Below, piece after piece: positions 44,626 through 63,758 of a DNA stretch of 64,000 nucleotides. The stretch comes from an uncultured virus (IMG/VR IMGVR_UViG_3300019373_000270). Lineage: Duplodnaviria > Heunggongvirae > Uroviricota > Caudoviricetes. The stretch is taken from the IMG/VR virus record IMGVR_UViG_3300019373_000270; one strand, 5' to 3'. The position numbers were made by a program, and so were the translations under genes. Every line of letters begins with the position of its first letter. The first letter of the stretch is position 1. The notes beneath the pieces are model-generated. The model did no database searches, was not told the origin of the DNA, and saw only the letters and a program-made list of their open reading frames with translations.

Positions 44626-45738
44626 ATGAATAAAATGACAATAGCTATTGATTACGATGATGTACTTGCAAAATGCGTCGAATACGCAGTAGAGCTTGAA
44701 GCACAAAAAGGAAATATTCTCGATTATAGAACGATTGACAGCTGGGGAAAGACAGGAAGAGCAACCGATGCGATCTTTAAGTACTTTGCCAGTGAGGAAT
44801 TCTTCCGTATGCAGCCTTTGTATGAAGGTGCAAATGAATTCATAAAGGAATTAGATAAGAGAGGCCATGAGATCGTTATTCTTACGGCGATAGACCCGAA
44901 GTTTGCTTCACTCAGAGCTGCAAGAATAATGAATGAATTCCCACAAATAAAGAAAGAAAATATTATTTTATCTTCAAGGAAAGATCTGGTCCATGTAGAC
45001 GTGCTGATTGATGATGCGCCCCATAACTTAAATGATACACCAGCAAAATTCCCGATCTGTTTTAGAAGACCGTGGAATGAACATCTTACAGGGCTGATAT
45101 CTGTATTCAGTTATGAAGAGATACTCAGCTTTATAGATAGGGTTTCTCGTTTATACAATGGGGGAACGGATTATAAGAACAAAGTATACTGTCTGGTAGC
45201 ACCTAGCTGCTCGGGCAAGACCGAAATAGCTAAAAAACTGAGCATGGATCCAAGATTCAGTATCCCCAGATCTACCACAACAAGAAAAATCAGAAACGGC
45301 GAATCAAAAGAAGCGTATAATTTTGTATCAAGAGAAGAATTTGAACAGATGTATAAAAACGGAAAGTTCATTGAAACGACAGTGTATGCCGGAAACAGAT
45401 ATGGTACAACTAAAAACGAGATCGACAACATCCTTTCTTCCGGAAAGAATGCTGTACTTCCCATAGATTTTTCGGGAGCAAATGCTTTGAAGATGAGATA
45501 CGGTGAACAGTGCGAGATGATTTACGTCAAACGCCCTAAAGCTGACATAATTCGTTCACTTCTTGATCGTATGCTTGCTCAGAATTCAGAAAAAATAAAT
45601 ACAGCAGATGTCGTTAATGATATCCAAAACAGGATATTATCTATTGATGACGAAAAAAAGAACGAATACCTTTGTGATAAAGTTTTGATAAATAACGCTC
45701 CTATCGATGATGTTATACAGAATTTTTGGAATTTATAG
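44626..45738 (+). CDS. Fusion of 5'(3')-deoxyribonucleotidase (HAD) and guanylate kinase
   Basis: IDYDDVL...LIDDAPHN...RPWN, then APSCSGKT, STTTRKIRNGE, YNFVSREEF, YGT. Confidence 0.88.
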   Translation: MNKMTIAIDYDDVLAKCVEYAVELEAQKGNILDYRTIDSWGKTGRATDAIFKYFASEEFFRMQPLYEGANEFIKELDKRGHEIVILTAIDPKFASLRAARIMNEFPQIKKENIILSSRKDLVHVDVLIDDAPHNLNDTPAKFPICFRRPWNEHLTGLISVFSYEEILSFIDRVSRLYNGGTDYKNKVYCLVAPSCSGKTEIAKKLSMDPRFSIPRSTTTRKIRNGESKEAYNFVSREEFEQMYKNGKFIETTVYAGNRYGTTKNEIDNILSSGKNAVLPIDFSGANALKMRYGEQCEMIYVKRPKADIIRSLLDRMLAQNSEKINTADVVNDIQNRILSIDDEKKNEYLCDKVLINNAPIDDVIQNFWNL

Positions 45739-45882: not shown

Positions 45883-46338
45883 TTATAGTCTGATATTGCC
45901 GGCTAGATTTTCATTTATCTTGATTTTTTGAGAAATAACCTGATCACGAGGAGTATCCTCATTCTCATTTAAAAACCGTTCAGTCCTTGAAAAATTAGGA
46001 CAATCATACACCATATATGATGTCCGGTTCATACATATTTCAGGAGAAGCTATCCAGCCGGGGACCGGATGAAACCCCCGAAACCATCCGCACTTCAGAT
46101 CAGACGAATGCTGACAGTTCCAGCATAAGGTCCCACACTTATACAGTTCATCTATTTGAGTCTGAGACAATCTCGAAAGGTCAAGTAAATTCCTTTCAGA
46201 TGCCTTCCGGGATATTATCATATCGTGGATCTTCTTGCCGCTTATCCCTTCTTCATAGAAATCCATATAGCTTAGTTCTTCCTTTATATTTATATTCAAA
46301 ATTAATTCTCGGAGAGTTGTGTTCATTGTAATAAACAC
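45883..46338 (-). CDS. Hypothetical Cys-rich protein
   Basis: LCWNC...CGW..GFHPVPGW...YDCPNF. Confidence 0.55.
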   Translation of the reverse strand: MFITMNTTLRELILNINIKEELSYMDFYEEGISGKKIHDMIISRKASERNLLDLSRLSQTQIDELYKCGTLCWNCQHSSDLKCGWFRGFHPVPGWIASPEICMNRTSYMVYDCPNFSRTERFLNENEDTPRDQVISQKIKINENLAGNIRL

Positions 46339-46464
46339 CTGCTTTCTAACGTATTTGCTTTTAGTATCTCCAATTATCTTAAAAGCATCTGTTATTATTA
46401 TATATGAAAATTACACTCAATAAAAAAGCCCTGTTCAAATAAAATGAACAGGGAAGGTGAAGTT

Positions 46465-46653
46465 CTATGCAACTGCAAACATTTTGTAAAGATGTTCTTC
46501 AGAAAAACTGGATTGTCCGCCGTTGAGCCAGGACACTGTGACCTGATCAAAATCATCGATGTAAATAATCGTCGCAACAGACCCCTTTTGAATATCCATA
46601 TAATCTTCCAACAGTTTGATTTTCTCTCCGACCGTAATTTTTGACATACTCAA
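46465..46653 (-). CDS. DUF4314-like small protein
   Basis: GEKIKL...GSVATI.YIDD..QV.VSW.NG. Confidence 0.5.
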   Translation of the reverse strand: MSMSKITVGEKIKLLEDYMDIQKGSVATIIYIDDFDQVTVSWLNGGQSSFSEEHLYKMFAVA

Positions 46654-46930
46654 CGTTCCTTTCTTTTTTATAAATTATATCAGATATGTGAATTTTTATC
46701 AAGCTGTCTTTTCTGAATTCTTTTAGAACATTTTTTGCTGAACATAATAGTAAACATAAAAACGAGGTCTTAGTTTGAGTTTTCTTTCTGAATCAACGCA
46801 TTATCTTCATTTCCTAAATTTTATATCAGACCATTTTTTACGAGCTGGGAATTTAACTGTACATAGTATACAGAATTACATCGATTTTTGTTAACCGGAA
46901 GAACAATTAATAATGGATATTTTTTTGTGA

Positions 46931-46960
46931 TTGACAAAATGAGCATATGTATGTTATAAT
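46931..46960 (+). promoter_or_regulatory. SigmaA promoter
   Basis: TTGACA-18 bp-(TG)TATAAT. Confidence 0.7.
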
Positions 46961-47186
46961 AAAAACATAAAGTTAAGGATAAAAAATGGGTGACATTTGA
47001 CATCCTTAGACCGGCAACATTGCGTCGGTTAATATTGTTCGAGAAGTTCTTTTTGAACCTTTGATACGCATGAAAAAAGCAATGTATAAAACCAAGAGAA
47101 TAAATAACCGCGATCTTCGGGGATTGCCTATACGGAAAAGATCTTTTCAGGTTATGCATGCAGCCTGAATATTATTTATCATAATT

Positions 47187-47216
47187 GCCTCGCCAATTTT
47201 CCGGCGGGGCTTTTTT
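47187..47216 (+). terminator. Intrinsic terminator
   Basis: GCCTCGCC...GGCGGGGC followed by T6. Confidence 0.8.
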
Positions 47217-47255
47217 GTTTATGATCAGAATAGTCGAATTATACAGCATGTAATA

Positions 47256-47696
47256 GTCTAAAATTAAGACAGAAGATGGTCTGAAAATTCACCTGAAAAT
47301 TTCCTCAATACCGTATTAGACTATATTTAAGACAGTATTTAGTCTAAAAAGTTGTCAGGATAGTGTTAAAATATCAGACAGAAATAAGCATAATGCTGTT
47401 TTCGTCTAATTTTTAGACAGTATTTAGACTAAAAATCAGATAGAAAAGCGCCTGAAAATATGTCAGACCAAAATTCAGACAGTTTTAAGTCTGATTTTTA
47501 GACAGAAAATAGTCTAAAAAAACGACAGATATGCTCTTAAAACTATATTAGTCTAAGTTTTAGACAGTATTTAGTCTAAAAACTTGTCAAGAAAGTGACT
47601 AAAATTTAGATTTAAGAACATACGATACCATAATAGTCTGACTTTTAGACAGTTATTAGGCTTAATTTTAGACAATCCTTAGTCTAAAACTTTGTC
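47256..47696. repeat. Array of about 17 imperfect 15-bp palindromes GTCTRA-N3-TYAGAC with 23-bp period
   Basis: Copies start at 47256, 47279, 47319, 47342, 47365, 47404, 47427, 47450, 47466, 47489, 47512, 47551, 47574, 47597, 47636, 47659, 47682. Confidence 0.85.
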
Positions 47697-47833
47697 ACTT
47701 ATTTAGTTCCCGGTTAAGATCTCGAAGCTATATACATTAATTATATAAAAATATTAAGATTTTACGTTTTTTAGAAGAATATCCGAGTGCTTCATGCTGC
47801 GGGTGATAAAATTTACCGGTATTTGTAAATTTC

Positions 47834-48161
47834 ATTCAAAATCCGAATAAAATTATTCAAAATCTGAATAATACTCTTCAAATTTTGAATAAAATGCTTT
47901 AGCGTATTAAAACTAACTTTAGTACGCTAAAACTAATTGGTTTCATATTTCTAAAACTAATTTCATATTTCTAAAACTAATTTTAGTTTTAGCGTAATGA
48001 AGGAAAAATATGGAATAATTATTCAAAATCTGAATTAAAAAACGCTGAAATGAAGCAAAAATCTCCGAAAATCTAAAACTAAATCGAAAAGTTAGTTTTA
48101 GAACTCTTAAAGGAAAATAAAAACGAAAACATACCCAAAATATACCCAAAACATACCCAAA
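47834..48161. repeat. Iteron-like repeat families (ATTCAAAATCYGAAT; CTAAAACTAA; ATACCCAAA)
   Basis: 21-bp, ~20-bp and 11-bp periodic repeats read directly from the sequence. Confidence 0.75.
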
Positions 48162-49519
48162 TTGGAGCAAATCGTGGGTTCAAAACGTCACTCAGAGTCA
48201 TTTCTACACAATAACTACCTAAAAACTACACCAGAACTGTCGTTTCATATTCGTTTTTTCACTCCTTTCATCCATATAATAATTCAAATTTTGAATAAAC
48301 ATAAAAAATTACAGGGGGGCAGTATAAAAACAAGAAAATCGAGAAGAAGAATAAAAGAATATAAAACTACGAAATCACTTCCCGAGGGAGGGAAATATCA
48401 AACACCGGCGAAAATCATCTTACAAGTAAGGTGTCTAAAATTTAGACAGTTTAATAAATCATCGTTCGGTGGTTTATTTCATTATCTTTTCAATCTATGC
48501 TCCATTATAACAATTCCGTATGAACTTTTTTCAAGCCTGCTCGTACATTTTTATATACAGAAGGAAGAAAAAGAATTCAAAAGGAAGAATCAAACAAGAA
48601 GAAAATATAAAGAAAAAATCCTTACACAAAAAGGAATAATCAAAATGATAAACTGATCGTTCTCTTTTACGAAAAGTGTCTAAAAATCAGACAAAAAATA
48701 AAATACATTCACACGTCTCTCTTCTCAAAAATTTTCCATAATGTTTTCTTTCAAAAAAATAGAACAGTAATTCTTTGGTTTATAAAAAAGATAATCGAAA
48801 GGAAAGTGTAGTAACATACACACGAACAAAAACGTCCCTGTGTAGTTCTGTTTCATACATCTATTCAACTCTCTGTCAAAAAAAAATCTCACATACTTAT
48901 TTTTACATACGGGAAAATATACAAACATTCCCTTATCATTCTTTTTCTTCACTCTTCCTTTGTACATCCATTCGTGTACAACTACGTGCATTATCTTTAT
49001 TTCCCTGAGTAAAACTTTCTATTCGGTAAATCTTCATTCTTTTTATCATTTTATCACTTCGTATCTGTCAGAGATCCTTTTATATCTTTTGTATCATCAG
49101 TATGAAATAGACCGTCCGATCATCATTCCTTTTCTCATTCTTTTCCATTATCATCTTGTAAAATGACCGATAAAAAATCATACAGAAACATCATTTAAAT
49201 TTCTGTATGATAAAAAATAATCACTTTCAAAAATATTTTTCTGAAAATATTTTCAGAGAATAATTATTCGGTATAATAATCATAAGCACGTTTTCTCTAA
49301 TGGTATCTTCATTTCAACCATCTAACATAATTTTTCCTATATATTTCATCTATGATTTCCGTCATATTGTTTTTCACCATAATAAAAATAATCTCTCTAA
49401 TGTTCCGATATCTCAGAACATTTCTCATAATGTTTTCTCACCGTTCTTCATTCCTATTATCATTTTTCTGTATAATAAAAAAAGACCCCGCGTAATGCGA
49501 GGTCAAAAAATAGCGGATC

Positions 49520-49903
49520 TCAATATGCAGGAGTAAAAGTACAGCCGGCTGATTCACATGCAGCCTTCATTTCTTCAACTTCATTTTCTCTTCTTTTCTT
49601 TCTCCAGTATTCTTCGTACTCTTTTGTCCCCGGAGTAAATATCTTACCGGTATTATAAAAAGAATTCTCAGGAGGAAGAATGGTCGTCGGAAGATTTTCG
49701 TAAAGTTCCATTTCTCTTACACTTATTTCGTTGCTAAAGAGATCCTCATATGAGGATTCGTATATGCATGGGTCGTTATATTTTCTGCAGTACTCTTCTG
49801 CGTCTTCTTTGTTGGAAGTAGCGAAAAGAATTTCTTCTTTGCTAACGGCATCACCGAATCCGCCGTCAACGTCGTATGAATGGATAATAAGATAGATTTT
49901 CAT
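49520..49903 (-). CDS. Hypothetical protein
   Basis: AAAGGAG SD; MKIYLIIHSYDVDGGFGDA start. Confidence 0.6.
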   Translation of the reverse strand: MKIYLIIHSYDVDGGFGDAVSKEEILFATSNKEDAEEYCRKYNDPCIYESSYEDLFSNEISVREMELYENLPTTILPPENSFYNTGKIFTPGTKEYEEYWRKKRRENEVEEMKAACESAGCTFTPAY

Positions 49904-50035
49904 ATGTAAAAACTCCTTTATAATAATAAGATCCAACTCGACTCCAAGTTATCAAGTAATAGATCTGATGTAATTATAAAAGAAAATACATAGCGATAAA
50001 ATAAACCATGAGAAAAAAATATACCTGCGGTCTAC

Positions 50036-50064
50036 TTGATTTTTTCTGAAAGATATGTTATAAT
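50036..50064 (+). promoter_or_regulatory. SigmaA promoter of tRNA operon 1
   Basis: TTGATT-17 bp-(TG)TATAAT. Confidence 0.8.
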
Positions 50065-50096
50065 GACCACAACATCAAAGAAAGGAGAAAACCGAA

Positions 50097-50225
50097 ATGA
50101 AAAAGTTCACTGTTTCATATCTGTATAGCGAATCATTACAGAGCCTCGTCCTCGAATCGGAAGAGACTTCTTTTGTGCTGCATACAGATAAAGCGGATGA
50201 ACATTTCGGGATCTCTTATTTCTGA
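50097..50225 (+). CDS. Leader peptide 1 (42 aa, Leu/Glu/Ser-rich): MKKFTVSYLYSESLQSLVLESEETSFVLHTDKADEHFGISYF
   Basis: AAAGGAG SD; lies between promoter and attenuator terminator. Confidence 0.8.
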   Translation: MKKFTVSYLYSESLQSLVLESEETSFVLHTDKADEHFGISYF

Positions 50226-50246
50226 GTATATTGATCCTTGTAAGTG

Positions 50247-50279
50247 AAACACCGTCTGTTTGCAGCAGGCGGTGTTTTT
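50247..50279 (+). terminator. Attenuator terminator 1
   Basis: AAACACCGTCTGT-TTGCA-GCAGGCGGTGTTT-TT, 5 nt before the first tRNA. Confidence 0.85.
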
Positions 50280-50284
50280 GTTAT

Positions 50285-50359
50285 GCCCGAATGATGGAAA
50301 TTGGCATACATTCCTGTCTTAGAAACAGGCTTCTGAGAGTTCGAATCTCTCTTCGGGTA
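50285..50359 (+). tRNA. tRNA-Leu(TAG), short variable loop
   Basis: CCTGT-CT TAG AA-ACAGG; GAGAG-TTCGAAT-CTCTC. Confidence 0.9.
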
Positions 50360-50364
50360 CTTAT

Positions 50365-50438
50365 GCGGGATTGGCGGAACAGGCATACGCAGCGGTCTCA
50401 AATACCGTTTTTTCAGGGTTCGACTCCCTGATCCCGCA
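50365..50438 (+). tRNA. tRNA-Leu(CAA), short variable loop
   Basis: GCGGT-CT CAA AT-ACCGT; CAGGG-TTCGACT-CCCTG. Confidence 0.9.
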
Positions 50439-50446
50439 TTTGATAT

Positions 50447-50519
50447 GCTCCCGTAGACCAACGGCAGAGTCAGCGGCTTTAAACACCGTTAAGTGTGAGT
50501 TCAAATCTCATCGGGAGTA
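50447..50519 (+). tRNA. tRNA-Leu(TAA), short variable loop
   Basis: GCGGC-TT TAA AC-ACCGT (31-39 mismatch); GTGAG-TTCAAAT-CTCAT. Confidence 0.8.
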
Positions 50520-50554
50520 TCAGGATCAATATATTCGGAAAGGAGATGTTTTCA

Positions 50555-50779
50555 ATGCCCGTTATAGATGTCAAGGCGACAGGTGCGAACATCAAAGCTA
50601 TAATGAAGATGAAAGGCTTTAAGATAGCCGATGTTCAGGAGAGGTGCGGCTTCAATACCCCGCAGGCTATTTTCAAATGGATGCGTGGAGATGCTGTGCC
50701 TACCATCGACAATATGATTATCATTGCCGATATGTTCGACGTGACAATAGACCAGATAGTTATAATCAAAAGGATATGA
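50555..50779 (+). CDS. XRE-family HTH protein (copy 1, inside tRNA operon 1)
   Basis: GFNTPQAIFKWMRGDAVPTIDN; AAGGAG SD. Confidence 0.9.
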   Translation: MPVIDVKATGANIKAIMKMKGFKIADVQERCGFNTPQAIFKWMRGDAVPTIDNMIIIADMFDVTIDQIVIIKRI

Positions 50780-50854
50780 CTTGTCAGGAAATATTGATAC
50801 ATAATAAAACAATGCACAGTTGCGGGATATGCTAACTTACCTGTAACTTGCTTC

Positions 50855-50926
50855 GGCCGCATCGTCTAATGGTCAGGACACAAGGTTTTCAACCTTGAAA
50901 TGTGGGTTCAACTCCCACTGCGGTCA
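50855..50926 (+). tRNA. tRNA-Glu(TTC)
   Basis: CAAGG-TT TTC AA-CCTTG; complete cloverleaf. Confidence 0.9.
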
Positions 50927-51011
50927 TTATAGCGCCCCATTTGAAATTCAGACAAGTTCCATGCTTTTGCGGCAGTGTTTTGTGGATTTCAATAGTCGGA
51001 ATGCTAAAAAT

Positions 51012-51106
51012 GTCCGTGTGTATGAACGTCATCAACATAGTTGATGACCGGAATACATACTCGGTTCAGAACCGAGGTTTTGTGAGTTCGAGTCTCCCCA
51101 CGGATA
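51012..51106 (+). tRNA. tRNA-Leu(CAG)-like with a 21-nt hairpin inserted in the D-loop
   Basis: Acceptor GTCCGTG/CACGGAT; CTCGG-TT CAG AA-CCGAG; T-loop TTCGAGT. Confidence 0.75.
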
Positions 51107-51109
51107 TAC

Positions 51110-51182
51110 GGCGGATTCGTCTAATTGGACAGGACAGGAGACTTTCAATTTCCAAATATGGGTTCGAGCCCCGTATCCGTCA
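51110..51182 (+). tRNA. tRNA-Glu(TTC)
   Basis: GGAGA-CT TTC AA-TTTCC. Confidence 0.88.
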
Positions 51183-51202
51183 TAAGTAGCTTACAAAGCT
51201 AC

Positions 51203-51231
51203 TTGACAATTCTCTGTATGAGTGATATAAT
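51203..51231 (+). promoter_or_regulatory. SigmaA promoter of tRNA operon 2
   Basis: Perfect TTGACA-17 bp-(TG)TATAAT. Confidence 0.9.
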
Positions 51232-51287
51232 CAGTTACAACAACAGGGGAGCAACAAACTCCCGAATTACTTTACGAAAGGATGAGA

Positions 51288-51425
51288 ATGATGAACTCTG
51301 CTAAGAACATTTCTGTTATCAGATGGTTTGAGTATCAGTATAGCTTTAGCTTTAGTTTTGACCAGTGTGGTCAAGGCTTTGTTGTACTGCATACTAAACC
51401 CGATGATCTTTCAGGTTCAAGATAG
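51288..51425 (+). CDS. Leader peptide 2 (45 aa, Phe/Gln/Cys/Trp): MMNSAKNISVIRWFEYQYSFSFSFDQCGQGFVVLHTKPDDLSGSR
   Basis: GAAAGGA SD; lies between promoter and terminator. Confidence 0.8.
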   Translation: MMNSAKNISVIRWFEYQYSFSFSFDQCGQGFVVLHTKPDDLSGSR

Positions 51426-51456
51426 AGTTTATCTGCCATCTTCTGATAGAACATAT

Positions 51457-51493
51457 CGTCTGTATGTAGTGCGAACTCATACGGACGTTTTTT
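51457..51493 (+). terminator. Attenuator terminator 2
   Basis: CGTCTGTATG...(GCGA loop)...CATACGGACG followed by T6. Confidence 0.85.
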
Positions 51494-51518
51494 ATTTCTA
51501 TCGGAAGGTGGTATTATT

Positions 51519-51749
51519 ATGACTTCGGAAATGCCGGTCATTGATATGACAGCGACAGGCTCTAACATAAAAACTCTTATAAAAGAAAAAGGTCTGAAAG
51601 TGGCTGAAATTCAGAACATTCTGGGGTTCAACACACCTCAGTCCATATTCAAGTGGATGAGAGGGGAGTCCATGCCCTCTATCGACAATCTGGTGATACT
51701 GGCACATATCCTGAATGTCACCATTGATGAGATAATAATCCTGAACTGA
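51519..51749 (+). CDS. XRE-family HTH protein (copy 2, first gene of tRNA operon 2)
   Basis: GFNTPQSIFKWMRGESMPSIDN; paralogue of 50555-50779. Confidence 0.9.
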   Translation: MTSEMPVIDMTATGSNIKTLIKEKGLKVAEIQNILGFNTPQSIFKWMRGESMPSIDNLVILAHILNVTIDEIIILN

Positions 51750-51773
51750 ATGTCCCGAAATCTCGGGACACAT

Positions 51774-51846
51774 GCCCTTGTAGCTCAGTTGGTAGAGCGC
51801 AGGTCTGAAGAACCTGGCGCCGCAAGTTCGATCCTTGCCGAGGGCA
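51774..51846 (+). tRNA. tRNA-Phe(GAA)
   Basis: CAGGT-CT GAA GA-ACCTG. Confidence 0.92.
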
Positions 51847-51852
51847 TTATGA

Positions 51853-51923
51853 TTCCGTTTCGTCTAGTGGTAGGACATCGGTTTCTGACACCGAAAACGG
51901 GAGTTCAAATCTCTCAGCGGAAA
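51853..51923 (+). tRNA. tRNA-Gln(CTG)
   Basis: TCGGT-TT CTG AC-ACCGA; U1-A72. Confidence 0.9.
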
Positions 51924-51926
51924 TAT

Positions 51927-51997
51927 GACTGTGTAGCCAAGCGGAAAGGCAGTCGGCTGCAACCCGACGAGCGTAGGTTCGACCCCTATCACAGTCT
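51927..51997 (+). tRNA. tRNA-Cys(GCA)
   Basis: GTCGG-CT GCA AC-CCGAC; U73. Confidence 0.92.
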
Positions 51998-52007
51998 TTT
52001 GCTAAAT

Positions 52008-52080
52008 GCCTTTGTAGCTCAGTTGGTAGAGCGTATGCCTGAAGAGCATAGCGTCGCAAGTTCGATTCTTGCCGGAGGCA
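52008..52080 (+). tRNA. tRNA-Phe(GAA)
   Basis: TATGC-CT GAA GA-GCATA. Confidence 0.92.
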
Positions 52081-52086
52081 CTATGA

Positions 52087-52158
52087 TTCCGTTTCGTCTA
52101 ACAGGCAGGACAACAGACTTTGACTCTGTAAGTGGGAGTTCGACCCTCTCAGCGGAAG
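52087..52158 (+). tRNA. tRNA-Gln(TTG)
   Basis: ACAGA-CT TTG AC-TCTGT. Confidence 0.92.
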
Positions 52159-52162
52159 CTAT

Positions 52163-52234
52163 AGGAGAATAGTTCAATGGCTAGAATGACGGTCTCCAAA
52201 ACCGTAGATCTCAGTTCGACTCTGAGTTTTCCTG
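52163..52234 (+). tRNA. tRNA-Trp(CCA)
   Basis: ACGGT-CT CCA AA-ACCGT; G73. Confidence 0.92.
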
Positions 52235-52251
52235 TCTATACTACAGGTTTA

Positions 52252-52280
52252 TTGAAATCTGTTCTAAGTTATGTTATAAT
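52252..52280 (+). promoter_or_regulatory. SigmaA promoter of tRNA operon 3
   Basis: TTGAAA-17 bp-(TG)TATAAT. Confidence 0.85.
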
Positions 52281-52312
52281 GTCATTAAAGAAATCAAGAA
52301 AGGACGATCATC

Positions 52313-52405
52313 ATGAAAAACACAGTATTTGTATTCTCATATTCGTATAGTTATTCAAGCGTTGTTCAGAAGAATAGGGCTCGATTGGCTATGCGCGAAT
52401 GTTGA
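52313..52405 (+). CDS. Leader peptide 3 (30 aa, Ser/Tyr run): MKNTVFVFSYSYSYSSVVQKNRARLAMREC
   Basis: GAAAGGA SD; lies between promoter and terminator. Confidence 0.85.
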   Translation: MKNTVFVFSYSYSYSSVVQKNRARLAMREC

Positions 52406-52431
52406 TACTGTTTGATGATAAGTTTCAGCAT

Positions 52432-52465
52432 ATACCGTTTGGCTTTCGGGTCAGGCGGTATTTTT
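52432..52465 (+). terminator. Attenuator terminator 3
   Basis: ATACCGTTTGGCT-TTCG-GGTCAGGCGGTAT followed by a T run. Confidence 0.85.
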
Positions 52466-52476
52466 ATTTGTTATTC

Positions 52477-52562
52477 GGGAGAGTCACCCAGCGGCGAGGG
52501 AAGCGGTCCGTAAAACCGTGACATCTGAAACACCGAAGGTTCGAGTCCTTCCTCTCCCACCA
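52477..52562 (+). tRNA. tRNA-Tyr(GTA), C33, encoded CCA
   Basis: GCGGT-CC GTA AA-ACCGT; long variable region. Confidence 0.85.
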
Positions 52563-52566
52563 ACAC

Positions 52567-52652
52567 GGGCAGGTACAGAGAATCGGCAAACTCGGCGGTC
52601 TGTAAAACCGTTGCTTTATGCACAGTGGGGTCGGCACCCACCCTGCCCACCA
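52567..52652 (+). tRNA. tRNA-Tyr(GTA), atypical T-loop GTCGGCA, encoded CCA
   Basis: GCGGT-CT GTA AA-ACCGT. Confidence 0.85.
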
Positions 52653-52655
52653 TAT

Positions 52656-52748
52656 ACCGACATAATCCTAATAGGTAAGGGATCATCTTGGAAAGGTGAC
52701 AGTAATCAGGCTATCCCTGATGTTTCGGTTCGAGTCCGAATGTCGGTG
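52656..52748 (+). tRNA. tRNA-Ser(GGA)
   Basis: TCATC-TT GGA AA-GGTGA; long variable arm; G73. Confidence 0.85.
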
Positions 52749-52754
52749 TCATAC

Positions 52755-52840
52755 GCTGTGTTAGTGTAATAGGTAACACACTGCTCCCGAAAAGCAGCGT
52801 CCTTACGGGCATACAGGTTCGAGTCCTGTACACAGCGCCA
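52755..52840 (+). tRNA. tRNA-Ser(CGA), C33, encoded CCA
   Basis: CTGCT-CC CGA AA-AGCAG; variable arm; G73. Confidence 0.85.
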
Positions 52841-52843
52841 TAC

Positions 52844-52938
52844 GGTCACATAAGCCTAATTGGTAAGGCAGCGGTTTGCTAAACCGTGAGTAATCGGGTT
52901 ATTCTGATGTCCGAGTTCAAGTCTCGGTGTGGCCGCCA
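52844..52938 (+). tRNA. tRNA-Ser(GCT), encoded CCA
   Basis: GCGGT-TT GCT AA-ACCGT; long variable arm; G73. Confidence 0.9.
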
Positions 52939-52941
52939 TCT

Positions 52942-53026
52942 GCCGTGTATGCAGGTTGGCTCTGCAAACTGTCCTGAAAACAGCATACCGTAAAGCGGTA
53001 CGAGGGTTCGATCCCCTCACACGGCG
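52942..53026 (+). tRNA. tRNA-Ser(TGA), C33, A8
   Basis: ACTGT-CC TGA AA-ACAGC; variable arm TACCG/CGGTA; G73. Confidence 0.8.
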
Positions 53027-53035
53027 CTGAAGCTA

Positions 53036-53068
53036 AAAGAACTTGCTATTATTGTAAGTTCTTTTTTT
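53036..53068 (+). terminator. Terminator closing the tRNA array
   Basis: AAAAGAACTTGC...GTAAGTTCTTTTTTT. Confidence 0.75.
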
Positions 53069-53133
53069 ATTGTTTCAAGTTTTCTTCTATCATAACATCA
53101 AGAATTCGTTTTCAATCAAAGGAGGAACTTTAT

Positions 53134-53250
53134 ATGTTTGAAAAAATAAAGTATGAGCCAACAGAACAGGATAAATCATTTCCTCTGTACAATGATGGGA
53201 TAGAAGAAAACGACGATGATTATGAATTTGAAGAATATAACTGTGACTAA
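53134..53250 (+). CDS. Small acidic protein (38 aa) MFEKIKYEPTEQDKSFPLYNDGIEENDDDYEFEEYNCD
   Basis: AAAGGAGG SD; too short for the ORF track. Confidence 0.5.
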   Translation: MFEKIKYEPTEQDKSFPLYNDGIEENDDDYEFEEYNCD

Positions 53251-53370
53251 ACAAACCATATATGATTTTTTATCCGTCATAATTTTCTGCTAATATATAA
53301 TCAGTATTTGAGAATTGATGGCCGGAGTATTTTTCTCAAATAACTTTTATAAACCAAAAGGAGAAAAAAC

Positions 53371-53670
53371 ATGTTTGATGAATTAACTTTAGAAAAAAAC
53401 GATCTTGATATCGAAGAACCCAAAGATTATAAACTGATGTTATGGAATGACGATACTACACTTATAGATACAGTTGTAAAAGTACTAACTGACATCATTG
53501 GTTTTGATACCCAAAAAGCTGTAAATGTAACGATAAAGGCTCATAACTTCGGGAACTGCTGCGTAGGTATGTATCCCTACGAAATAGCAGAAACGCTAAT
53601 GGTAGAATCAATGAAGTATGTCCATTCAAGAGGTTATCATGATTTTAAAATGACAGTGGAGGAAGCATAG
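53371..53670 (+). CDS. clpS: ClpS N-degron adaptor
   Basis: YKLMLWNDDTT..DTVVKVL...AH.FG...VGMYPYEIAET. Confidence 0.9.
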   Translation: MFDELTLEKNDLDIEEPKDYKLMLWNDDTTLIDTVVKVLTDIIGFDTQKAVNVTIKAHNFGNCCVGMYPYEIAETLMVESMKYVHSRGYHDFKMTVEEA

Positions 53671-55941
53671 ATGAATATAAATCAATTAATAAAAGAAACG
53701 GCAGATTATGTAGACTCGAAGAACAGAACACTTATTACTACCGAGGATCTGTTGATAGTAATGATGTCAAAACTCAATGAATATAATATTCTTGACTTCG
53801 ATGAAGCTATCGAATTTCTGGAGGAATATCAGCGGGAAAATTTTGAGAGGACCCCATTAAAAAACATCAAGAAAATGATAATAAGCCAGAGAATATACGA
53901 ATTACAGGAAATGATAGAATCATCGCCTGTTGCAGTACAGAACACACATGATGTCCCTCTTACAGTCGTAATGACCTTCATCGCCTCATCCGAAATAGAT
54001 TCAATGGCTTCCATATTATCTAAAAGACTTATTGGCAGCGATACTGCCAAATTTGAAAAGCTTATATCAGCCGAGACTGAGAAAATTCCGGATTTTAAAT
54101 TTAATATAAATTCATTCAGAGATTATAAAGAAGATAAACGACAAACAACAAACGAAAGAAAGACAGGCACAAAAGAAAAAAGATCTGCTCTTGAATGTTT
54201 CGGCATAGATCTTTCTGAACGAGAAAGGAGAAATCCTCTTGTAGGCAGAGAAAAAGAAATGCAGCGTGTGATAGAAGTCCTTCTCAAAAAGGACAAGCCT
54301 AATCCTATCCTGACCGGATCTCAGGGAGTTGGCAAAACCGCTGTGGTACAGGAACTTGCCATAAGAATAAAAGAAGGAAATGTTCCAAAGGCAATAAAAG
54401 ATACTGTAAGATCTATATACAGTATAGAAATTGCCGATCTTCTTGCTGGTTCTAAGTACAGAGGAGAATTTGAAGAAAAACTGAAAGCTGTTCTGGAAGA
54501 AGTAAATAACTCCGACCGTTCTGTAATTCTCTATATCGATGAAATACACACTATCATGGGTGCAGGTGCTAATCCGGACAATCCTGTTGATGCAGCAAAT
54601 ATCCTTAAACCGTATCTTACAAACGGAACTATAAGGATAATAGGCTCTACTACTACCGATGAGTACAGGAAGTTCATCGAAAGAGATAAAGCGCTCGCAA
54701 GAAGATTTATGCCTGTGGATATTCCAGAGCCTTCAGTAGAAGATACTATAAAAATCCTGAATGGTATAAAAGAAGGTTACGAAAAGTTTCATGGCGTGAC
54801 CTATTCAGCAAATGCAATAGAAGCTGCTGTAAAAATGTCAGCTCAATATATTCACGATAGATGTCTGCCGGATAAAGCTATTGATCTTATTGATGAAGCC
54901 GGGGCTAAATACGCAGCCGGTGTATACAAGAACAATACGATCAGTGTAGACGATATTGAAAATGTCCTTTTTGAAACATATAAGATACCCGGGTCACAGA
55001 TGACCCGTGATGAATCAGAGGACGTAAAATGCCTTTCCGATAACCTGAATAAAAAAATATTCGGACAGGAGGAAGCAGCCAACGCTTTGATGAAGCGCAT
55101 CAAACTTGCAAAGGCAGGAATAAGAGATCTGTCAAAGCCCATAGCTAACATACTGTTTGTAGGTCCGACAGGGACAGGAAAGACAGAGATCAGTAAAGTC
55201 CTTGCTGAATCCTTAAAGATGAAACTGCTCAGATTTGATATGTCTGAGTACCAGGAAGAACATACAGTCGCAAAACTGTTCGGCTCGCCTGCAGGCTATG
55301 TCGGATATGAGGATGGCGGCTTGCTTACAAATGCGGTGAGGTCAGACCCTAACTGTGTTCTGCTGCTTGATGAGATAGAAAAAGCACATCCAAAGGTCTA
55401 TAACGCCCTTCTTCAGGCTATGGATTACGGTATGATGACCGATTCAAAGGGAGTGAAAGTTGATTTTACGAACACTGTAATAATTATGACTTCCAATGCG
55501 GGAGCTGATTCAATAGTAAAGAAAAATGTCGGTTTCGGGAAATCATCCGAAACATTAGATATTTCAGCTATGGATAAAGCACTTGAAGAAAAATTTCCTC
55601 CTGAATTCAGAGGAAGGCTTACAGATGTTGTGAAATTCAATGATCTTACTCCTGAAATATCTGAAATGATAGTAAAGAAAGAGATCGCTGCTCTGGCAGA
55701 TAACCTCACTAAGAAAAATGTCAAGCTCACAGTTACCGACAGCTGCATCGAACATCTGGCTGAGATCGGATACACTCCCATGACGGGAGCAAGAAATATA
55801 AAAAATCTTGTATCAAAAGAAATCTCCGAACTTATAGTCGATGATATGCTCTTCGGAAAACTCAAAAACGGAGGAAGTATAAAGATAGACCGGTTGGAAA
55901 AGAAATACAGAAAAACTATACGAACAAAGAAAACTATTTGA
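53671..55941 (+). CDS. clpA: ClpA-like double AAA+ unfoldase
   Basis: LVGREKE, GSQGVGKT, GSKYRGEFEE, GPTGTGKT, RFDMSEYQE, VGF loop; no long middle domain; adjacent clpS. Confidence 0.9.
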   Translation: MNINQLIKETADYVDSKNRTLITTEDLLIVMMSKLNEYNILDFDEAIEFLEEYQRENFERTPLKNIKKMIISQRIYELQEMIESSPVAVQNTHDVPLTVVMTFIASSEIDSMASILSKRLIGSDTAKFEKLISAETEKIPDFKFNINSFRDYKEDKRQTTNERKTGTKEKRSALECFGIDLSERERRNPLVGREKEMQRVIEVLLKKDKPNPILTGSQGVGKTAVVQELAIRIKEGNVPKAIKDTVRSIYSIEIADLLAGSKYRGEFEEKLKAVLEEVNNSDRSVILYIDEIHTIMGAGANPDNPVDAANILKPYLTNGTIRIIGSTTTDEYRKFIERDKALARRFMPVDIPEPSVEDTIKILNGIKEGYEKFHGVTYSANAIEAAVKMSAQYIHDRCLPDKAIDLIDEAGAKYAAGVYKNNTISVDDIENVLFETYKIPGSQMTRDESEDVKCLSDNLNKKIFGQEEAANALMKRIKLAKAGIRDLSKPIANILFVGPTGTGKTEISKVLAESLKMKLLRFDMSEYQEEHTVAKLFGSPAGYVGYEDGGLLTNAVRSDPNCVLLLDEIEKAHPKVYNALLQAMDYGMMTDSKGVKVDFTNTVIIMTSNAGADSIVKKNVGFGKSSETLDISAMDKALEEKFPPEFRGRLTDVVKFNDLTPEISEMIVKKEIAALADNLTKKNVKLTVTDSCIEHLAEIGYTPMTGARNIKNLVSKEISELIVDDMLFGKLKNGGSIKIDRLEKKYRKTIRTKKTI

Positions 55942-56039
55942 GAAACATACCCCGGAGAATAAGTTCTTCGGGGCTTTTTTTTAGTTTTGGGAATTTTCAT
56001 GTATAATTAATTCAGAAAACACAGCGGGGAAGTGCTTAG

Positions 56040-59932: not shown

Positions 59933-60199
59933 TTGTACTTCAGTTCTTTGAATGAAGTCTCGATGTTAAGGACGATGTTGAGTGGGGCTTTACCTATTTT
60001 CTGCCTGAATTTAAAAAAACGTCTGTAAGATATGGGGCTTCATTCTGCCTAAAGTCTCCGACATAGAGGGTGAAATCGACCTGTGGACTGCGGAAATCGA
60101 AAAGAATTTCAGGGTTATCAGGGCAGAATCCTATGAAGCGATACTGGAAGAAATACAGCAATAATATAGAATACTTATCTATCAGAGGTGGTGAACTTC

Positions 60200-60886
60200 A
60201 TGTGTACTTGGTTCTATGCCGATTATAAGCCTTTATCGGCTATTATTGATAAGGCACAACAACTGTCGCTTACCGACAGCATAATGAACGCTATGTCAAA
60301 ACCTAAAACTATGTCTGGCAATATCCGTCCTACTGATATGGCAGCGGTGTTTGCTCCGAATAAGCAAGGCAATATGGCTGTGTTCCCGATGATATGGGGC
60401 TTCACGGTCGAACAATCATCAAAACCGCTTATCAACTGTCGTATTGAAACAGCCGATCAAAAGCCTTTATGGAAGGACTCTTGGTTCAGGCGGAGATGTG
60501 TTATTCCGGCATCATGGTACTACGAATGGGGCATACCGCCCTCCGAGGTCGGCTATCATAACGCCAATGAGCAGCACAAGATAAAAAAAGAAAAGTATGC
60601 GATTCAACCTGAAGGAGCTGAGATCACATACCTCGCCGGATTGTACCGTTTTGAGGAACATCGTGGAGTACAGATACCAATGTTTGCCGTCATAACAAGG
60701 GAATCGGTCGAACCCGTAAGCTCTATCCATGACCGAATGCCACTTATCCTCGGCAAAGACAGCTTGCGTGAATGGGTGCGCCCTGACGGTGATCCCAGCA
60801 GAATAGCGAAAAAGGCTTTGACGAATATGGTCATGGAGAAAGCGGTTGACTATCCTGAGCCGAAGCCGGAGTTTATGCAGATATAA
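60200..60886 (+). CDS. SOS response-associated peptidase (SRAP/YedK/HMCES family)
   Basis: N-terminal MC, NIRPT, MIWGF, LINCRIET, RRCVIPASWYYEW, IHDRMPLIL. Confidence 0.92.
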   Translation: MCTWFYADYKPLSAIIDKAQQLSLTDSIMNAMSKPKTMSGNIRPTDMAAVFAPNKQGNMAVFPMIWGFTVEQSSKPLINCRIETADQKPLWKDSWFRRRCVIPASWYYEWGIPPSEVGYHNANEQHKIKKEKYAIQPEGAEITYLAGLYRFEEHRGVQIPMFAVITRESVEPVSSIHDRMPLILGKDSLREWVRPDGDPSRIAKKALTNMVMEKAVDYPEPKPEFMQI

Positions 60887-60914
60887 AATGGTGATAATGG
60901 AAGGAGCTTGAGAT

Positions 60915-61376
60915 ATGTTTTTCAAAAAAGCTAAAAAGGAAAAACAAGAAAACGAAACAATAAATAATGCAGTTTTCGGAGAGCTTGAATACGTTGACTG
61001 TGCGTGGGAAGGATATTCGGTAAGCTCGCTGTTTGGTGAAGAAAAGACTATTGATCTGTATGTATATGCTGATGAAGACGAAAAGACCATTGGAGAGCAT
61101 CAGGAAAAGGTATATCAGAATTATCTCAGGTATCGTATAGAAATCGAAGACGCTGTCAGAAAAGTCATTTTCAGAGAATTTAAGCTCCCGTATGATTTTG
61201 ACCTTACATCAAGATTCAGAGTAAGTTCGATAATAGTGACCTGTGACGGTAATTGCGGCTTGGCAATAGTTGACAACACCTATGAAATGGGACATAACCG
61301 TTTCAAATTTGTGGTCGAAACCGAACCTGATTATGAATTCACAGATTCAGAAGAATATTATATAGAAACTAAATGA
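60915..61376 (+). CDS. Hypothetical protein, immunity-protein-like
   Basis: NAVFGELEY..AW start typical of small acidic immunity-like proteins. Confidence 0.4.
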   Translation: MFFKKAKKEKQENETINNAVFGELEYVDCAWEGYSVSSLFGEEKTIDLYVYADEDEKTIGEHQEKVYQNYLRYRIEIEDAVRKVIFREFKLPYDFDLTSRFRVSSIIVTCDGNCGLAIVDNTYEMGHNRFKFVVETEPDYEFTDSEEYYIETK

Positions 61377-61419
61377 TAACAGGTAAATAAGATCACTTTC
61401 AAAAAAAGGGCGGTGAAAC

Positions 61420-62913
61420 ATGAACAAGGTATATGTAGCGATAGACCTCAAATCCTTCTATGCATCATGCGAGTGCGTAGAGCTTGGGCTTGATCCGCTG
61501 AACACAAATCTTGTGGTAGCAGATCAGAGCCGCACCGAAAAGACGATATGCCTTGCCGTTTCGCCGTCACTGAAAAGCTACGGAATTTCGGGCAGAGCAA
61601 GGCTGTTTGAGGTCGTGCAGCGTGTGAAAGAAGTCAATGAACAGCGGCAACGGAAAGCTCCCAACAGACAGCTCACGGACAAGAGCTTCATCTACTCGGA
61701 GCTTATTTCAAATCCGTCCCTCGCCGTTGACTATGTGGTAGCGACTCCGCAGATGGCGCACTATATGAAAGTGAGCGCCGATATTTACGGCATTTATCTG
61801 AAATACGTTGCTCCAGAAGATATTTTCGCATACTCGGTGGACGAGGTTTTCATTGATGCAACTGGCTATCTCAGCACCTACCATACGGACGGTCACGGTT
61901 TTGCTCGTATGCTGATACAAGATGTGCTTGACACAACGGGTATCACGGCTACGGCAGGAGTCGGCACGAATATGTTTCTGTGCAAGGTCGCTATGGATAT
62001 TGTGGCGAAACATATTCCGGCGGATAAGGACGGTGTGCGTATCGCAGAGCTTGACGAGCAGACTTTCAAGGATAAATGGTGGTCGCACACGCCGATCACG
62101 GACTTCTGGAGAGTAGGTGCAGGAACGGCAAAGCGCCTTGAAACGCTCCATATCTATACTATGGGCGATATTGCGAGATATTCCCTTGACCGCTATCATA
62201 TCGGCAAACTGTATAAGCTCCTAGGTAAAAATGCAGAGCTGCTAATAGATCATGCGTGGGGCATTGAACCGACTACCATAGCCGATGTGAAAGCCTACAA
62301 GCCGTCAAACAACAGTATTACATCGGGACAAGTCCTGCAAGAGCCTTGCGACTATGACCGAACACGACTGATCGTGTGGGAAATGGCGGATATGCTCTCC
62401 CTTGACTTGGTGGATAAAGGGCTTGTGACAAATCAGATCGTACTGACTATTGGCTATGACCGTGAGAGCCTTGCGGACGGTCACTATCGGGGCGAAGTGG
62501 TTTCCGACCGCTACGGCAGACAAGTTCCGAAACACGCCCACGGTACACAGAACCTCGATAAGCACACATCGTCCACAAGGAAAATGGTCGAAGCGACAAT
62601 GACGCTTTTTGACCGTATATTCGATAAAACTCTGCTTGCAAGGCGAATAAACCTTGTTGCCTGCAATGTCATCAAGGAAAGCGATGTGCCTGAGAGCGAG
62701 AGCTACGAACAGCTTTCCCTGTTCGATACGGAAGAAACAATACAAGACCGTGTGGACGATGAGAAGGCGCTTGAAAAAGAAAGAGCATTGCAGGAAGCGA
62801 TTCTCACGATCAAGCATAAATTCGGAAAGAATGCCGTTCTGAAAGGTACGAATTTTACGGAAGGTGCTACGGCGAAGGAGCGTAACCGGCAAATTGGCGG
62901 GCATAAGGCTTGA
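61420..62913 (+). CDS. Y-family DNA polymerase (ImpB/MucB/UmuC type)
   Basis: IDLKSFYASCEC, YSVDEVFID, TGITATAGVG, DFWRVG, KFGKNAV...ERNRQIGGH. Confidence 0.93.
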   Translation: MNKVYVAIDLKSFYASCECVELGLDPLNTNLVVADQSRTEKTICLAVSPSLKSYGISGRARLFEVVQRVKEVNEQRQRKAPNRQLTDKSFIYSELISNPSLAVDYVVATPQMAHYMKVSADIYGIYLKYVAPEDIFAYSVDEVFIDATGYLSTYHTDGHGFARMLIQDVLDTTGITATAGVGTNMFLCKVAMDIVAKHIPADKDGVRIAELDEQTFKDKWWSHTPITDFWRVGAGTAKRLETLHIYTMGDIARYSLDRYHIGKLYKLLGKNAELLIDHAWGIEPTTIADVKAYKPSNNSITSGQVLQEPCDYDRTRLIVWEMADMLSLDLVDKGLVTNQIVLTIGYDRESLADGHYRGEVVSDRYGRQVPKHAHGTQNLDKHTSSTRKMVEATMTLFDRIFDKTLLARRINLVACNVIKESDVPESESYEQLSLFDTEETIQDRVDDEKALEKERALQEAILTIKHKFGKNAVLKGTNFTEGATAKERNRQIGGHKA

Positions 62914-62921
62914 GGTGGTAT

Positions 62922-63323
62922 ATGAAAAGAATAATTGGAAATGTTGGATGTTTTCGCCTTCCTGATGGAAGATACGGCTTTGGAAGAATATACACTGATG
63001 CGTGTGTAGCATTTTATAAGCATATAGGCACTTCTGAAACAGATTTACCCCAAAATGAGGATTATGCTTTCATAGTTGGTTTATACAATAGCGGTATAAC
63101 CCAAATGAAACTTGTAGAAAAACGACCATTCCATTCACTTGAAGAATCTATACCGCCTTCTACTAAGGTACATGATCCGATTTCCGGCAAGTATAGTATC
63201 TATAAAAACGGTGAATTATTTCCGTCATCTTATGAAGAATGTAAAGAGCTTGAAACTTGTGCAGTATGGGAATTGAACCATGTAATCGACAGACTTATGG
63301 GTGATGATAAATGGAATATTTGA
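62922..63323 (+). CDS. Imm26-like immunity protein
   Basis: GNVGCFRLPDGRYGFGRI...LETCAVW..NHVIDRL. Confidence 0.55.
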   Translation: MKRIIGNVGCFRLPDGRYGFGRIYTDACVAFYKHIGTSETDLPQNEDYAFIVGLYNSGITQMKLVEKRPFHSLEESIPPSTKVHDPISGKYSIYKNGELFPSSYEECKELETCAVWELNHVIDRLMGDDKWNI

Positions 63324-63338
63324 AAAAATAAGGAATGA

Positions 63339-63758
63339 TTGGATATGCCCAATAATTACGATGATATAAAACACCTCACTCGTCCGCAGTATGACGATCT
63401 GCACCCTATGTCAATGCACGACAGGGCGGCACAGTTCTCACCCTTTGCGGCACTTGTGGGCTATGACGATGCCGTTGCCGAGACTGCAAGGCTGACCGAC
63501 AGCAAGGTAGAGCTGACAGAGGACGAAATGTCTGAGCTAAACGCTAATCTGAATCGCCTGCTTGACAGCTTGGACGAACAACCGCAGATCAGCGTAACTT
63601 ACTTCGTTCCCGATGAAAAGAAGTCGGGCGGTAAGTATGTGGAAAAGCAAGGTGTGGTGCGGATATTTGATAGCTATTCACAGGAGCTTATCTTCAAAGA
63701 CAGGTTCAGGATAAACATTCAGGATATAATCAAGATAGAGTTCAAAGGGGAGTGCTGA
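63339..63758 (+). CDS. YolD-like protein
   Basis: YDDIKHL.RP...MSMHDRAAQFSPFAALVGY. Confidence 0.85.
   Translation: MDMPNNYDDIKHLTRPQYDDLHPMSMHDRAAQFSPFAALVGYDDAVAETARLTDSKVELTEDEMSELNANLNRLLDSLDEQPQISVTYFVPDEKKSGGKYVEKQGVVRIFDSYSQELIFKDRFRINIQDIIKIEFKGEC

Follow-up and report, generated by a model that had tools for sequence, protein, structure and literature searches.

Introduction

The E. coli pheM-pheST genes are controlled through a leader peptide, and T-box riboswitches bind uncharged tRNA directly and read one specifier codon. Attenuators of amino-acid operons can be multivalent: according to the accessible part of PMC1183508, they combine a leader ORF holding cognate codons with four RNA regions (1-4), mutually exclusive 2:3 and 3:4 hairpins and an intrinsic terminator. 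The Bacillus hisS*/hisZ genes have His leader peptides (accessible part of PMC2965389), and the Anabaena trn operon is induced by translational stress through direct repeats at its promoter (accessible part of PMC8421152). In 2021, the same portion of the Anabaena study called the regulation of individual bacterial tRNA genes largely unknown (PMC8421152). Here we analyse a stretch of 64,000 nucleotides (henceforth the window; uncultured virus record IMGVR_UViG_3300019373_000270) in which an earlier note, made from the sequence alone, had proposed an attenuator at 51288-51493 with Phe, Gln, Cys and Trp control codons ahead of tRNA genes.

Results

A leader ORF, an antiterminator strand and a terminator precede HTH and tRNA genes

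Positions 51288-51493 consist of a leader ORF, an antiterminator strand and an intrinsic terminator, placed between a promoter and genes for an HTH protein and tRNAs (Table 1). They belong to cassette 2, the middle one of three cassettes in the window that are each built from promoter, leader, terminator and tRNA genes. Three features of an attenuator are present, namely a short leader ORF with a ribosome-binding site (RBS) between promoter and terminator, control codons that correspond to what the genes behind them encode, here the tRNA cargo, and a 2:3 antiterminator and 3:4 terminator that exclude each other. The target is not a biosynthetic enzyme or a synthetase; downstream are the HTH gene and six tRNA genes. 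This anatomy, established by computation, agrees with that of the earlier note, which nevertheless overlooked that the first cistron is an HTH gene, that a helix covers the RBS of this gene and that a dyad lies beside the -35 box. The partner of the antiterminator does lie inside the terminator, the start of whose stem we correct to 51457.

Table 1. Features of cassette 2 and of its two sister cassettes, in window positions.
Feature	Position	Strand	Basis
Candidate XRE-HTH operator (inferred), a 6-3-6 dyad abutting the -35 box	51187..51201	+	
Promoter, sigma-70, 12/12 with extended -10 TG	51203..51231	+	Promoter scoring; conserved in relatives
Shine-Dalgarno of leader	51277..51282	+	Sequence
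Leader ORF, 45 codons; conserved start 51291	51288..51425	+	
Control window, codons 13-29, with W, 4 F, 3 Q and C among 17	51324..51374	+	
Region 1, protector strand; partner ~51380-51400	51325..51344	+	
Inner hairpin, with U-rich run to 51383; candidate RNA polymerase pause (inferred)	51354..51378	+	
Region 2, antiterminator strand; encodes VLH	51384..51394	+	
Anti-RBS arm; partner 51496-51513 over the HTH ribosome-binding site	51434..51451	+	
Intrinsic terminator, regions 3:4 and U-tract; stem 51457-51487 plus U6	51457..51493	+	
XRE-family HTH gene, first cistron behind the attenuator	51519..51749	+	Pfam HTH_3, E 1e-10
tRNA cargo: Phe(GAA), Gln(CTG), Cys(GCA), Phe(GAA), Gln(TTG), Trp(CCA)	51773..52236	+	ARAGORN
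Sister cassette 1: dyad, promoter, Leu/Glu-rich leader 50097-50225, terminator, Leu x3, HTH, Glu x2	50020..51182	+	
Sister cassette 3: dyad, promoter, Ser/Tyr leader 52313-52405, terminator, Tyr x2, Ser x4, final terminator	52237..53065	+	

The leader RNA is predicted to switch kinetically

The RNA of leader 2 folds with z = -7.57, and 0 of 200 shuffles were as good. Region 1 pairs with the strand that the earlier note had assigned to it, as a 19-bp helix 1:2 interrupted by a single bulge on each side (-19.2 kcal/mol) rather than as an ungapped 20-mer, in which 15/20 positions pair. The alternative partner proposed for 51384-51394, namely 51462-51472, is likewise borne out: helix 2:3 pairs at 11/11 positions, including two G-U pairs, and can be lengthened to 13 bp (-18.1 kcal/mol), while the terminator helix 3:4 reaches -16.0 kcal/mol. 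Among relatives, helix 1:2 ranges from -7 to -22 kcal/mol and dominates without a ribosome in 12/21 (transcripts cut at the ATG). The inner hairpin and its U-run keep the same position in relatives L001-L010. Transcription-translation coupling is loose in Firmicutes, so that a pause site would be necessary, and the hairpin with its U-run is a candidate for it. In a 21-row alignment, 96.1% of cells pair in the antiterminator and 97.1% in the terminator. The compensatory changes that the earlier note had suggested looking for were found at column 233, which covaries with both of its partners, 132 and 251, in 5/21 rows, possibly as one event; covariation is otherwise limited, with double changes in 2:3 at this one pair only.

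At equilibrium with a complete terminator there was no switch, the terminator having a probability of 0.98-0.99 at every ribosome position; since the full terminator always wins in this way, the switch must be kinetic. We therefore report folds of the transcript before the 3' arm of the terminator emerges. In this folding model, the probability of the antiterminator is ~0.78 with one ribosome at codons 13-23, and ~0 with the ribosome at codons 24-46 or with none. A second, trailing ribosome would make codons 9-28 permissive, with a dip at 21-22; Gln26 and Cys27 are predicted to be permissive only with such a queued ribosome, and Gln29 is marginal. In leader 1, the modelled window with a second ribosome closes after Glu23, the last cargo codon of its control stretch. 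Modelled across 21 relatives, the antiterminator forms while the ribosome sits between 23 and 5 codons ahead of the VLH anchor (-23 to -5) and no longer forms once it has reached -2; cargo codons are enriched from -20 to -4 (codons 13-29 here), dropping at -3. Thus, in the model the 3' edge of the enrichment coincides with the last ribosome positions permitting the antiterminator, an edge that is partly plain geometry.

Leader codons match the tRNA cargo

Codons 13-31, counted from the ATG at 51288, read WFEYQYSFSFSFDQCGQGF. As the earlier note had stated, they include all four amino acids of the downstream tRNAs and both Gln codons, on which codon reading and ARAGORN agree: TGG at 13, TGT at 27, CAG at 17 and 26, CAA at 29 and TTT at 14, 20, 22, 24 and 31. 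The control stretch itself is better drawn as codons 13-29, Phe31 lying outside both the enriched and the fold-permissive window. W, F, Q and C make up 9/17 of codons 13-29 against 1/27 in the rest of the leader, and 0/9221 windows of 17 residues from 14 window proteins were as rich in them, 35 containing all four. The other eight control codons specify E, Y, Y, S, S, S, D and G; Asp, Tyr and Ser are cassette 2 cargo in some relatives. Because 8/17 control codons are not cargo, the earlier description of a "four-amino-acid sensor" is too tidy, although the enrichment in W, F, Q and C stands.

We gathered relatives with the HTH protein as query, one search keeping the best 80 of 564 confirmed matches. 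From 138 records, 33 were set aside as duplicates or as having no HTH/tRNA block, and 105 were kept. Leaders were picked blind to their codons, by a terminator ≤75 nt from the block and an RBS-bearing ORF of 18-70 codons ending nearby. This rule assigned a leader to 103 cassettes, 93 of which have tRNAs; an antisense artefact (L002-) was excluded. Matches were scored in codons from 6 to 70% of leader length, with the C-terminal part as control. Residues matching the cargo numbered 376/877 against 213.0±18.4 after shuffling (35 clusters, 0/20000 permutations), where permutation does not remove shared descent and the relatives represent few clades. With 22 clusters, the count was 236/531 against 131.3±14.1 (0/20000 permutations). 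The C-terminal control was at chance (70/454 versus 75.0). Poorly matching leaders were kept in the count (L011 3/19, L126 2/36, L047 4/31). At the other extreme stands a 41-codon leader before a 14-amino-acid tRNA array (L114 5732-5857; also L110, L111 and L116), a census-type leader in which 24/24 control codons match the cargo.

A held-out set comprised 29 new loci from 401 genomes of the family of G004 (Lachnospiraceae), 126 of which have the HTH. Under unchanged rules, 16/29 loci had tRNAs beside the HTH gene and 10 leaders were found; 95/275 residues matched against 45.0±9.6 (0/20000 permutations), with the control at 23/138 versus 23.7. This set includes leaders rich in Met codons ahead of Met tRNAs and others rich in Arg codons ahead of Arg tRNAs. 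The remaining 13/29 top loci (within L139-L167) have no same-strand tRNA within 1.5 kb of the HTH gene, and the HTH family thus also occurs in other contexts.

One could argue that leader composition is set by RNA structure and shared descent, so that the tRNA match is a by-product and the terminator is fixed or switched by a protein. The Ser/Phe codons of leader 2 indeed form the foot of the inner hairpin, and the small number of clades would fit such an account. We nevertheless consider it highly improbable, since the held-out test largely refutes it and the C-terminal control behaves as chance predicts. In other sequence families the leaders agree with different cargo (Arg, Met, Lys, His, Ser/Arg/Ile), and on the leader-3 scaffold the codons swap with the cargo, Glu/His codons preceding Glu/His tRNAs and Ser/Tyr codons preceding Ser/Tyr tRNAs (L079 3719-3805 and L078 2150-2242). 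The reading frame, too, is kept through indels: the ATG at 51291 is the one retained in 21/21 aligned relatives, and its distance to the antiterminator is a whole number of codons in 21/21, over eight different lengths.

Leader codons change with the cargo

The earlier note had supposed that control codons were re-tuned to new cargo. We examined 51 distinct VLH-type leaders with complete cargo, of 67, leaving out the other families. A Trp codon is in the control window of 9/9 leaders with tRNA-Trp and 1/42 without, a Cys codon in 17/18 with tRNA-Cys and 2/33 without, and a Gln codon in 21/21 with tRNA-Gln and 4/30 without; Asp codons average 4.25 with tRNA-Asp and 0.4 without (n = 51 in each case). 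Tyr and Ser codons are present regardless of cargo, occurring in 33/33 and 34/36 leaders that do not carry the tRNA. Single cassettes illustrate the change. In Ruminococcus albus 7, cassette 2 begins with tRNA-Asp and its leader has four Asp codons; the window has a second tRNA-Phe in place of tRNA-Asp, and one Asp codon. Where tRNA-Asp is the sole cargo (L004), the Trp and Cys codons are both lost.

Independent pairs were counted on an HTH tree of 54 rows. Over ten amino acids together, 18.0 changed the same way, 0.5 the opposite way and 20.4 not at all, compared with 2.9, 3.8 and 32.3 for mismatched traits; no single amino acid was significant in these pairs, as the by-product account would allow, and branches are reused across traits. 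A test by codon box was mixed across Ser, Arg and Leu. Ser codons are AGY in 56/61 cases with tRNA-Ser(GCU) as sole Ser cargo, in 80/148 without Ser cargo and in 19/45 with both boxes as cargo, and AGC may be structural; Arg and Leu codons do not follow the box (4/9 CGN with AGR-only cargo; 10/13 CTN with TTR-only cargo). We conclude that, as read from sequence, leader codons correspond to the tRNA cargo and have altered along with it, a link that held across the relatives, the held-out set, the 51-leader counts and the tree pairs and that upholds the earlier claim of re-tuning.

These counts also bear on whether a true attenuator might serve as a general sensor of slow translation, answering to antibiotic, stress or any stall in the window, with the codon match only adding weight and single Trp and Cys codons doing little. 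The eight non-cargo control codons and the Tyr and Ser codons present with or without cargo would suit such a sensor, as would two precedents: sensitivity falls when non-regulatory codons dilute a control region (PMC1183508, accessible part), and the tRNA array of Anabaena responds to translational stress in general (PMC8421152, accessible part). Against this, the single Trp and Cys codons follow their tRNAs closely. They do so at other positions in the window than in R. albus 7, and this difference between lineages points to selection on their presence. We regard a general sensor as unlikely and favour a codon-specific one.

The HTH gene and the promoter dyads

The HTH protein of cassette 2 is 58% identical to its paralogue in cassette 1 (50555-50779). 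An 18-bp helix (51434-51451/51496-51513) covers the RBS of the HTH gene, and an equivalent helix is found in 21/21 relatives (duplex -13 to -27 kcal/mol). The antiterminator crosses this helix, and the HTH gene is therefore probably translated only while a stall lasts. A related dyad precedes the -35 box in the locatable promoters of leaders 1, 2 and 3, with window copies also at 50020-50034 and 52237-52251, and in Ruminococcus-type loci both arms of the cassette 2 dyad are changed. The dyad is a candidate XRE operator, at a place that would suit an activator; taken by itself, the operator-like pattern did not reach significance (4 matches in the window, with as many in 6/100 shuffles). In three relatives (L075 3409-3909, L124 and L051), leader, terminator and HTH gene are followed by no tRNA that we found; Phe and most Gln/Cys codons are lost in L075 and L124 and kept in L051.

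Such leaders, the first place of the HTH gene, the conserved helix over its RBS and the dyad adjoining the -35 box could mean that the attenuator mainly controls the HTH gene, in transcription and translation, and that the tRNAs are induced via the HTH protein at the promoter dyads. We find this very unlikely: cassette 3 has no HTH gene, the tRNAs come first in cassette 1, and no promoter scoring >9/12 lies between HTH and tRNA genes. The terminator, moreover, sits between promoter and tRNAs whatever the HTH protein does.

Sister cassettes and plasmid setting

Leaders 1 and 2 have the antiterminator strand, the terminator and a promoter element in common, and their HTH genes are paralogues. 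The earlier note had taken the VLHT common to both for the antiterminator strand and the two leaders for homologues, and both readings hold. The window resembles the 420-kb plasmid pRUMAL01 of R. albus 7 (topoisomerase 80%, CpaF ATPase 82%), whose tRNA array has the same order and matches at 81%, with 64% of the query covered; on pRUMAL01, no tRNA was present in the checked 40 kb flanking the array (L037, L038). A scan of viral contigs with the HTH protein confirmed 0/83 candidates, and five 26-nt matches to Yersinia plasmids were dismissed as chance (E 0.5). Assembled RNA contigs from four RNA runs cover related arrays end to end and show neither ends nor levels.

Several neighbouring features deserve record. 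A damaged tRNA-Leu(AAG) at 51011-51107, intact in L002, has an inverted-repeat insertion that alters its D-arm and anticodon region. Bacterial tRNA-Leu usually has a long variable arm; the three putative tRNA-Leu genes at 50285-50521 are only ~76 nt and have none. The second tRNA-Tyr and tRNA-Ser(TGA) (52567-52652 and 52942-53027) were missed by default ARAGORN and found at a lower threshold. A ClpS-ClpA-like pair follows directly after the tRNA array (53371-55941), an SOS cassette with SRAP, UmuC-like and YolD-like genes lies at 60188-63758, and a fused 5'-nucleotidase and guanylate kinase is encoded at 44626-45738.

Discussion

It is likely, judging from the sequence and its relatives, that ribosome-mediated transcription attenuation is here applied to tRNA genes as a feedback on charged-tRNA supply; production of the cassette 2 tRNAs would then probably be confined to times of slow decoding at Phe, Gln, Cys and Trp codons. 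If these codons were read fast, the ribosome would pass codon 30 and cover region 2; region 2 would then be released to region 1, the terminator would form and transcription would stop at ~51493. If any of them were slow, for want of tRNA or with tRNA cleaved or uncharged, ribosomes would dwell at codons 13-29, perhaps with a polymerase pause and a queued second ribosome assisting, and region 2 would pair with the 5' arm of the terminator so that the HTH and tRNA genes are transcribed, the former probably being translated for the length of the stall. New tRNA would speed the reading of the leader and close the switch, a negative feedback. Because a leader of this kind senses decoding speed, tRNA shortage and amino-acid shortage would both be inputs. 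It could not tell missing tRNA from missing amino acid, and more tRNA would help mainly in the first case.

More tentatively, the cassettes may form a modular tRNA homeostat on mobile elements of gut Clostridia, a possibility to which we give less than even weight. Each block would gauge the supply of the tRNA species that it encodes, partly at the level of single isoacceptors, and would replace them once those of the host had been cleaved or outcompeted; anticodon nucleases from defence or toxin-antitoxin systems are one possible cause. The co-induced XRE protein would tie the blocks together through the dyad at -35. If so, leader codons would be a readable record of the tRNAs under pressure.

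Known RNA families were sought by database search. A T-box riboswitch was rejected: the window gave no Rfam match to it up to E 5 at 46000-56000, and in 15 related loci tRNA was the sole Rfam match at gathering score. No leader or riboswitch family of Rfam was seen in that interval or those loci, and NCBIfam held no family for 6/6 leader peptides. The "HTH-XRE RNA motif", which we considered as a candidate identity, returned no Rfam match and no paper. Our literature search found no paper on leader-peptide attenuation of tRNA genes, although supplementary motif tables could hold such leaders; the accessible part of PMC8297930 does not describe it, "tRNA gene" is absent from the accessible main text of PMC2965389, and "attenuat" and "leader" are absent from the accessible text of PMC8421152.

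Set beside described systems, cassette 2 would share with the T-box antitermination that depends on tRNA charging in Firmicutes. Bacillus hisS*/hisZ (in Firmicutes) and E. coli pheM-pheST likewise place the supply chain of translation under leader peptides; unlike the tRNA cassettes here, those leaders control proteins and answer to one amino acid. The Anabaena trn operon, too, is a tRNA array that is mobile, usually silent and switched on by impaired translation, but has one switch for the whole array, as far as the accessible text of PMC8421152 goes, where the present cassettes are codon-matched blocks. In leader ORF, cognate codons, regions 1-4 and terminator, cassette 2 resembles the thr, ilvGMEDA, ilvBN, pheA, his, trp and leu attenuators. 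In contrast to these, the output is tRNA genes and an XRE regulator instead of biosynthetic enzymes, single Trp and Cys codons lie in a mixed window of 17 codons, an extra helix covers the next RBS, and the system is plasmid-borne in three copies with different codon sets. In the literature searched we found no prior description of this combination, a known principle, leader-peptide attenuation, with a new output, tRNA genes. It bears on the open question why mobile elements carry tRNA arrays, as the inducing signal would be written in the DNA, each tRNA block listing the codons to which it answers. Leader-peptide attenuation would thereby have been re-tuned, one codon at a time, in Clostridia, where T-boxes are the more familiar device.
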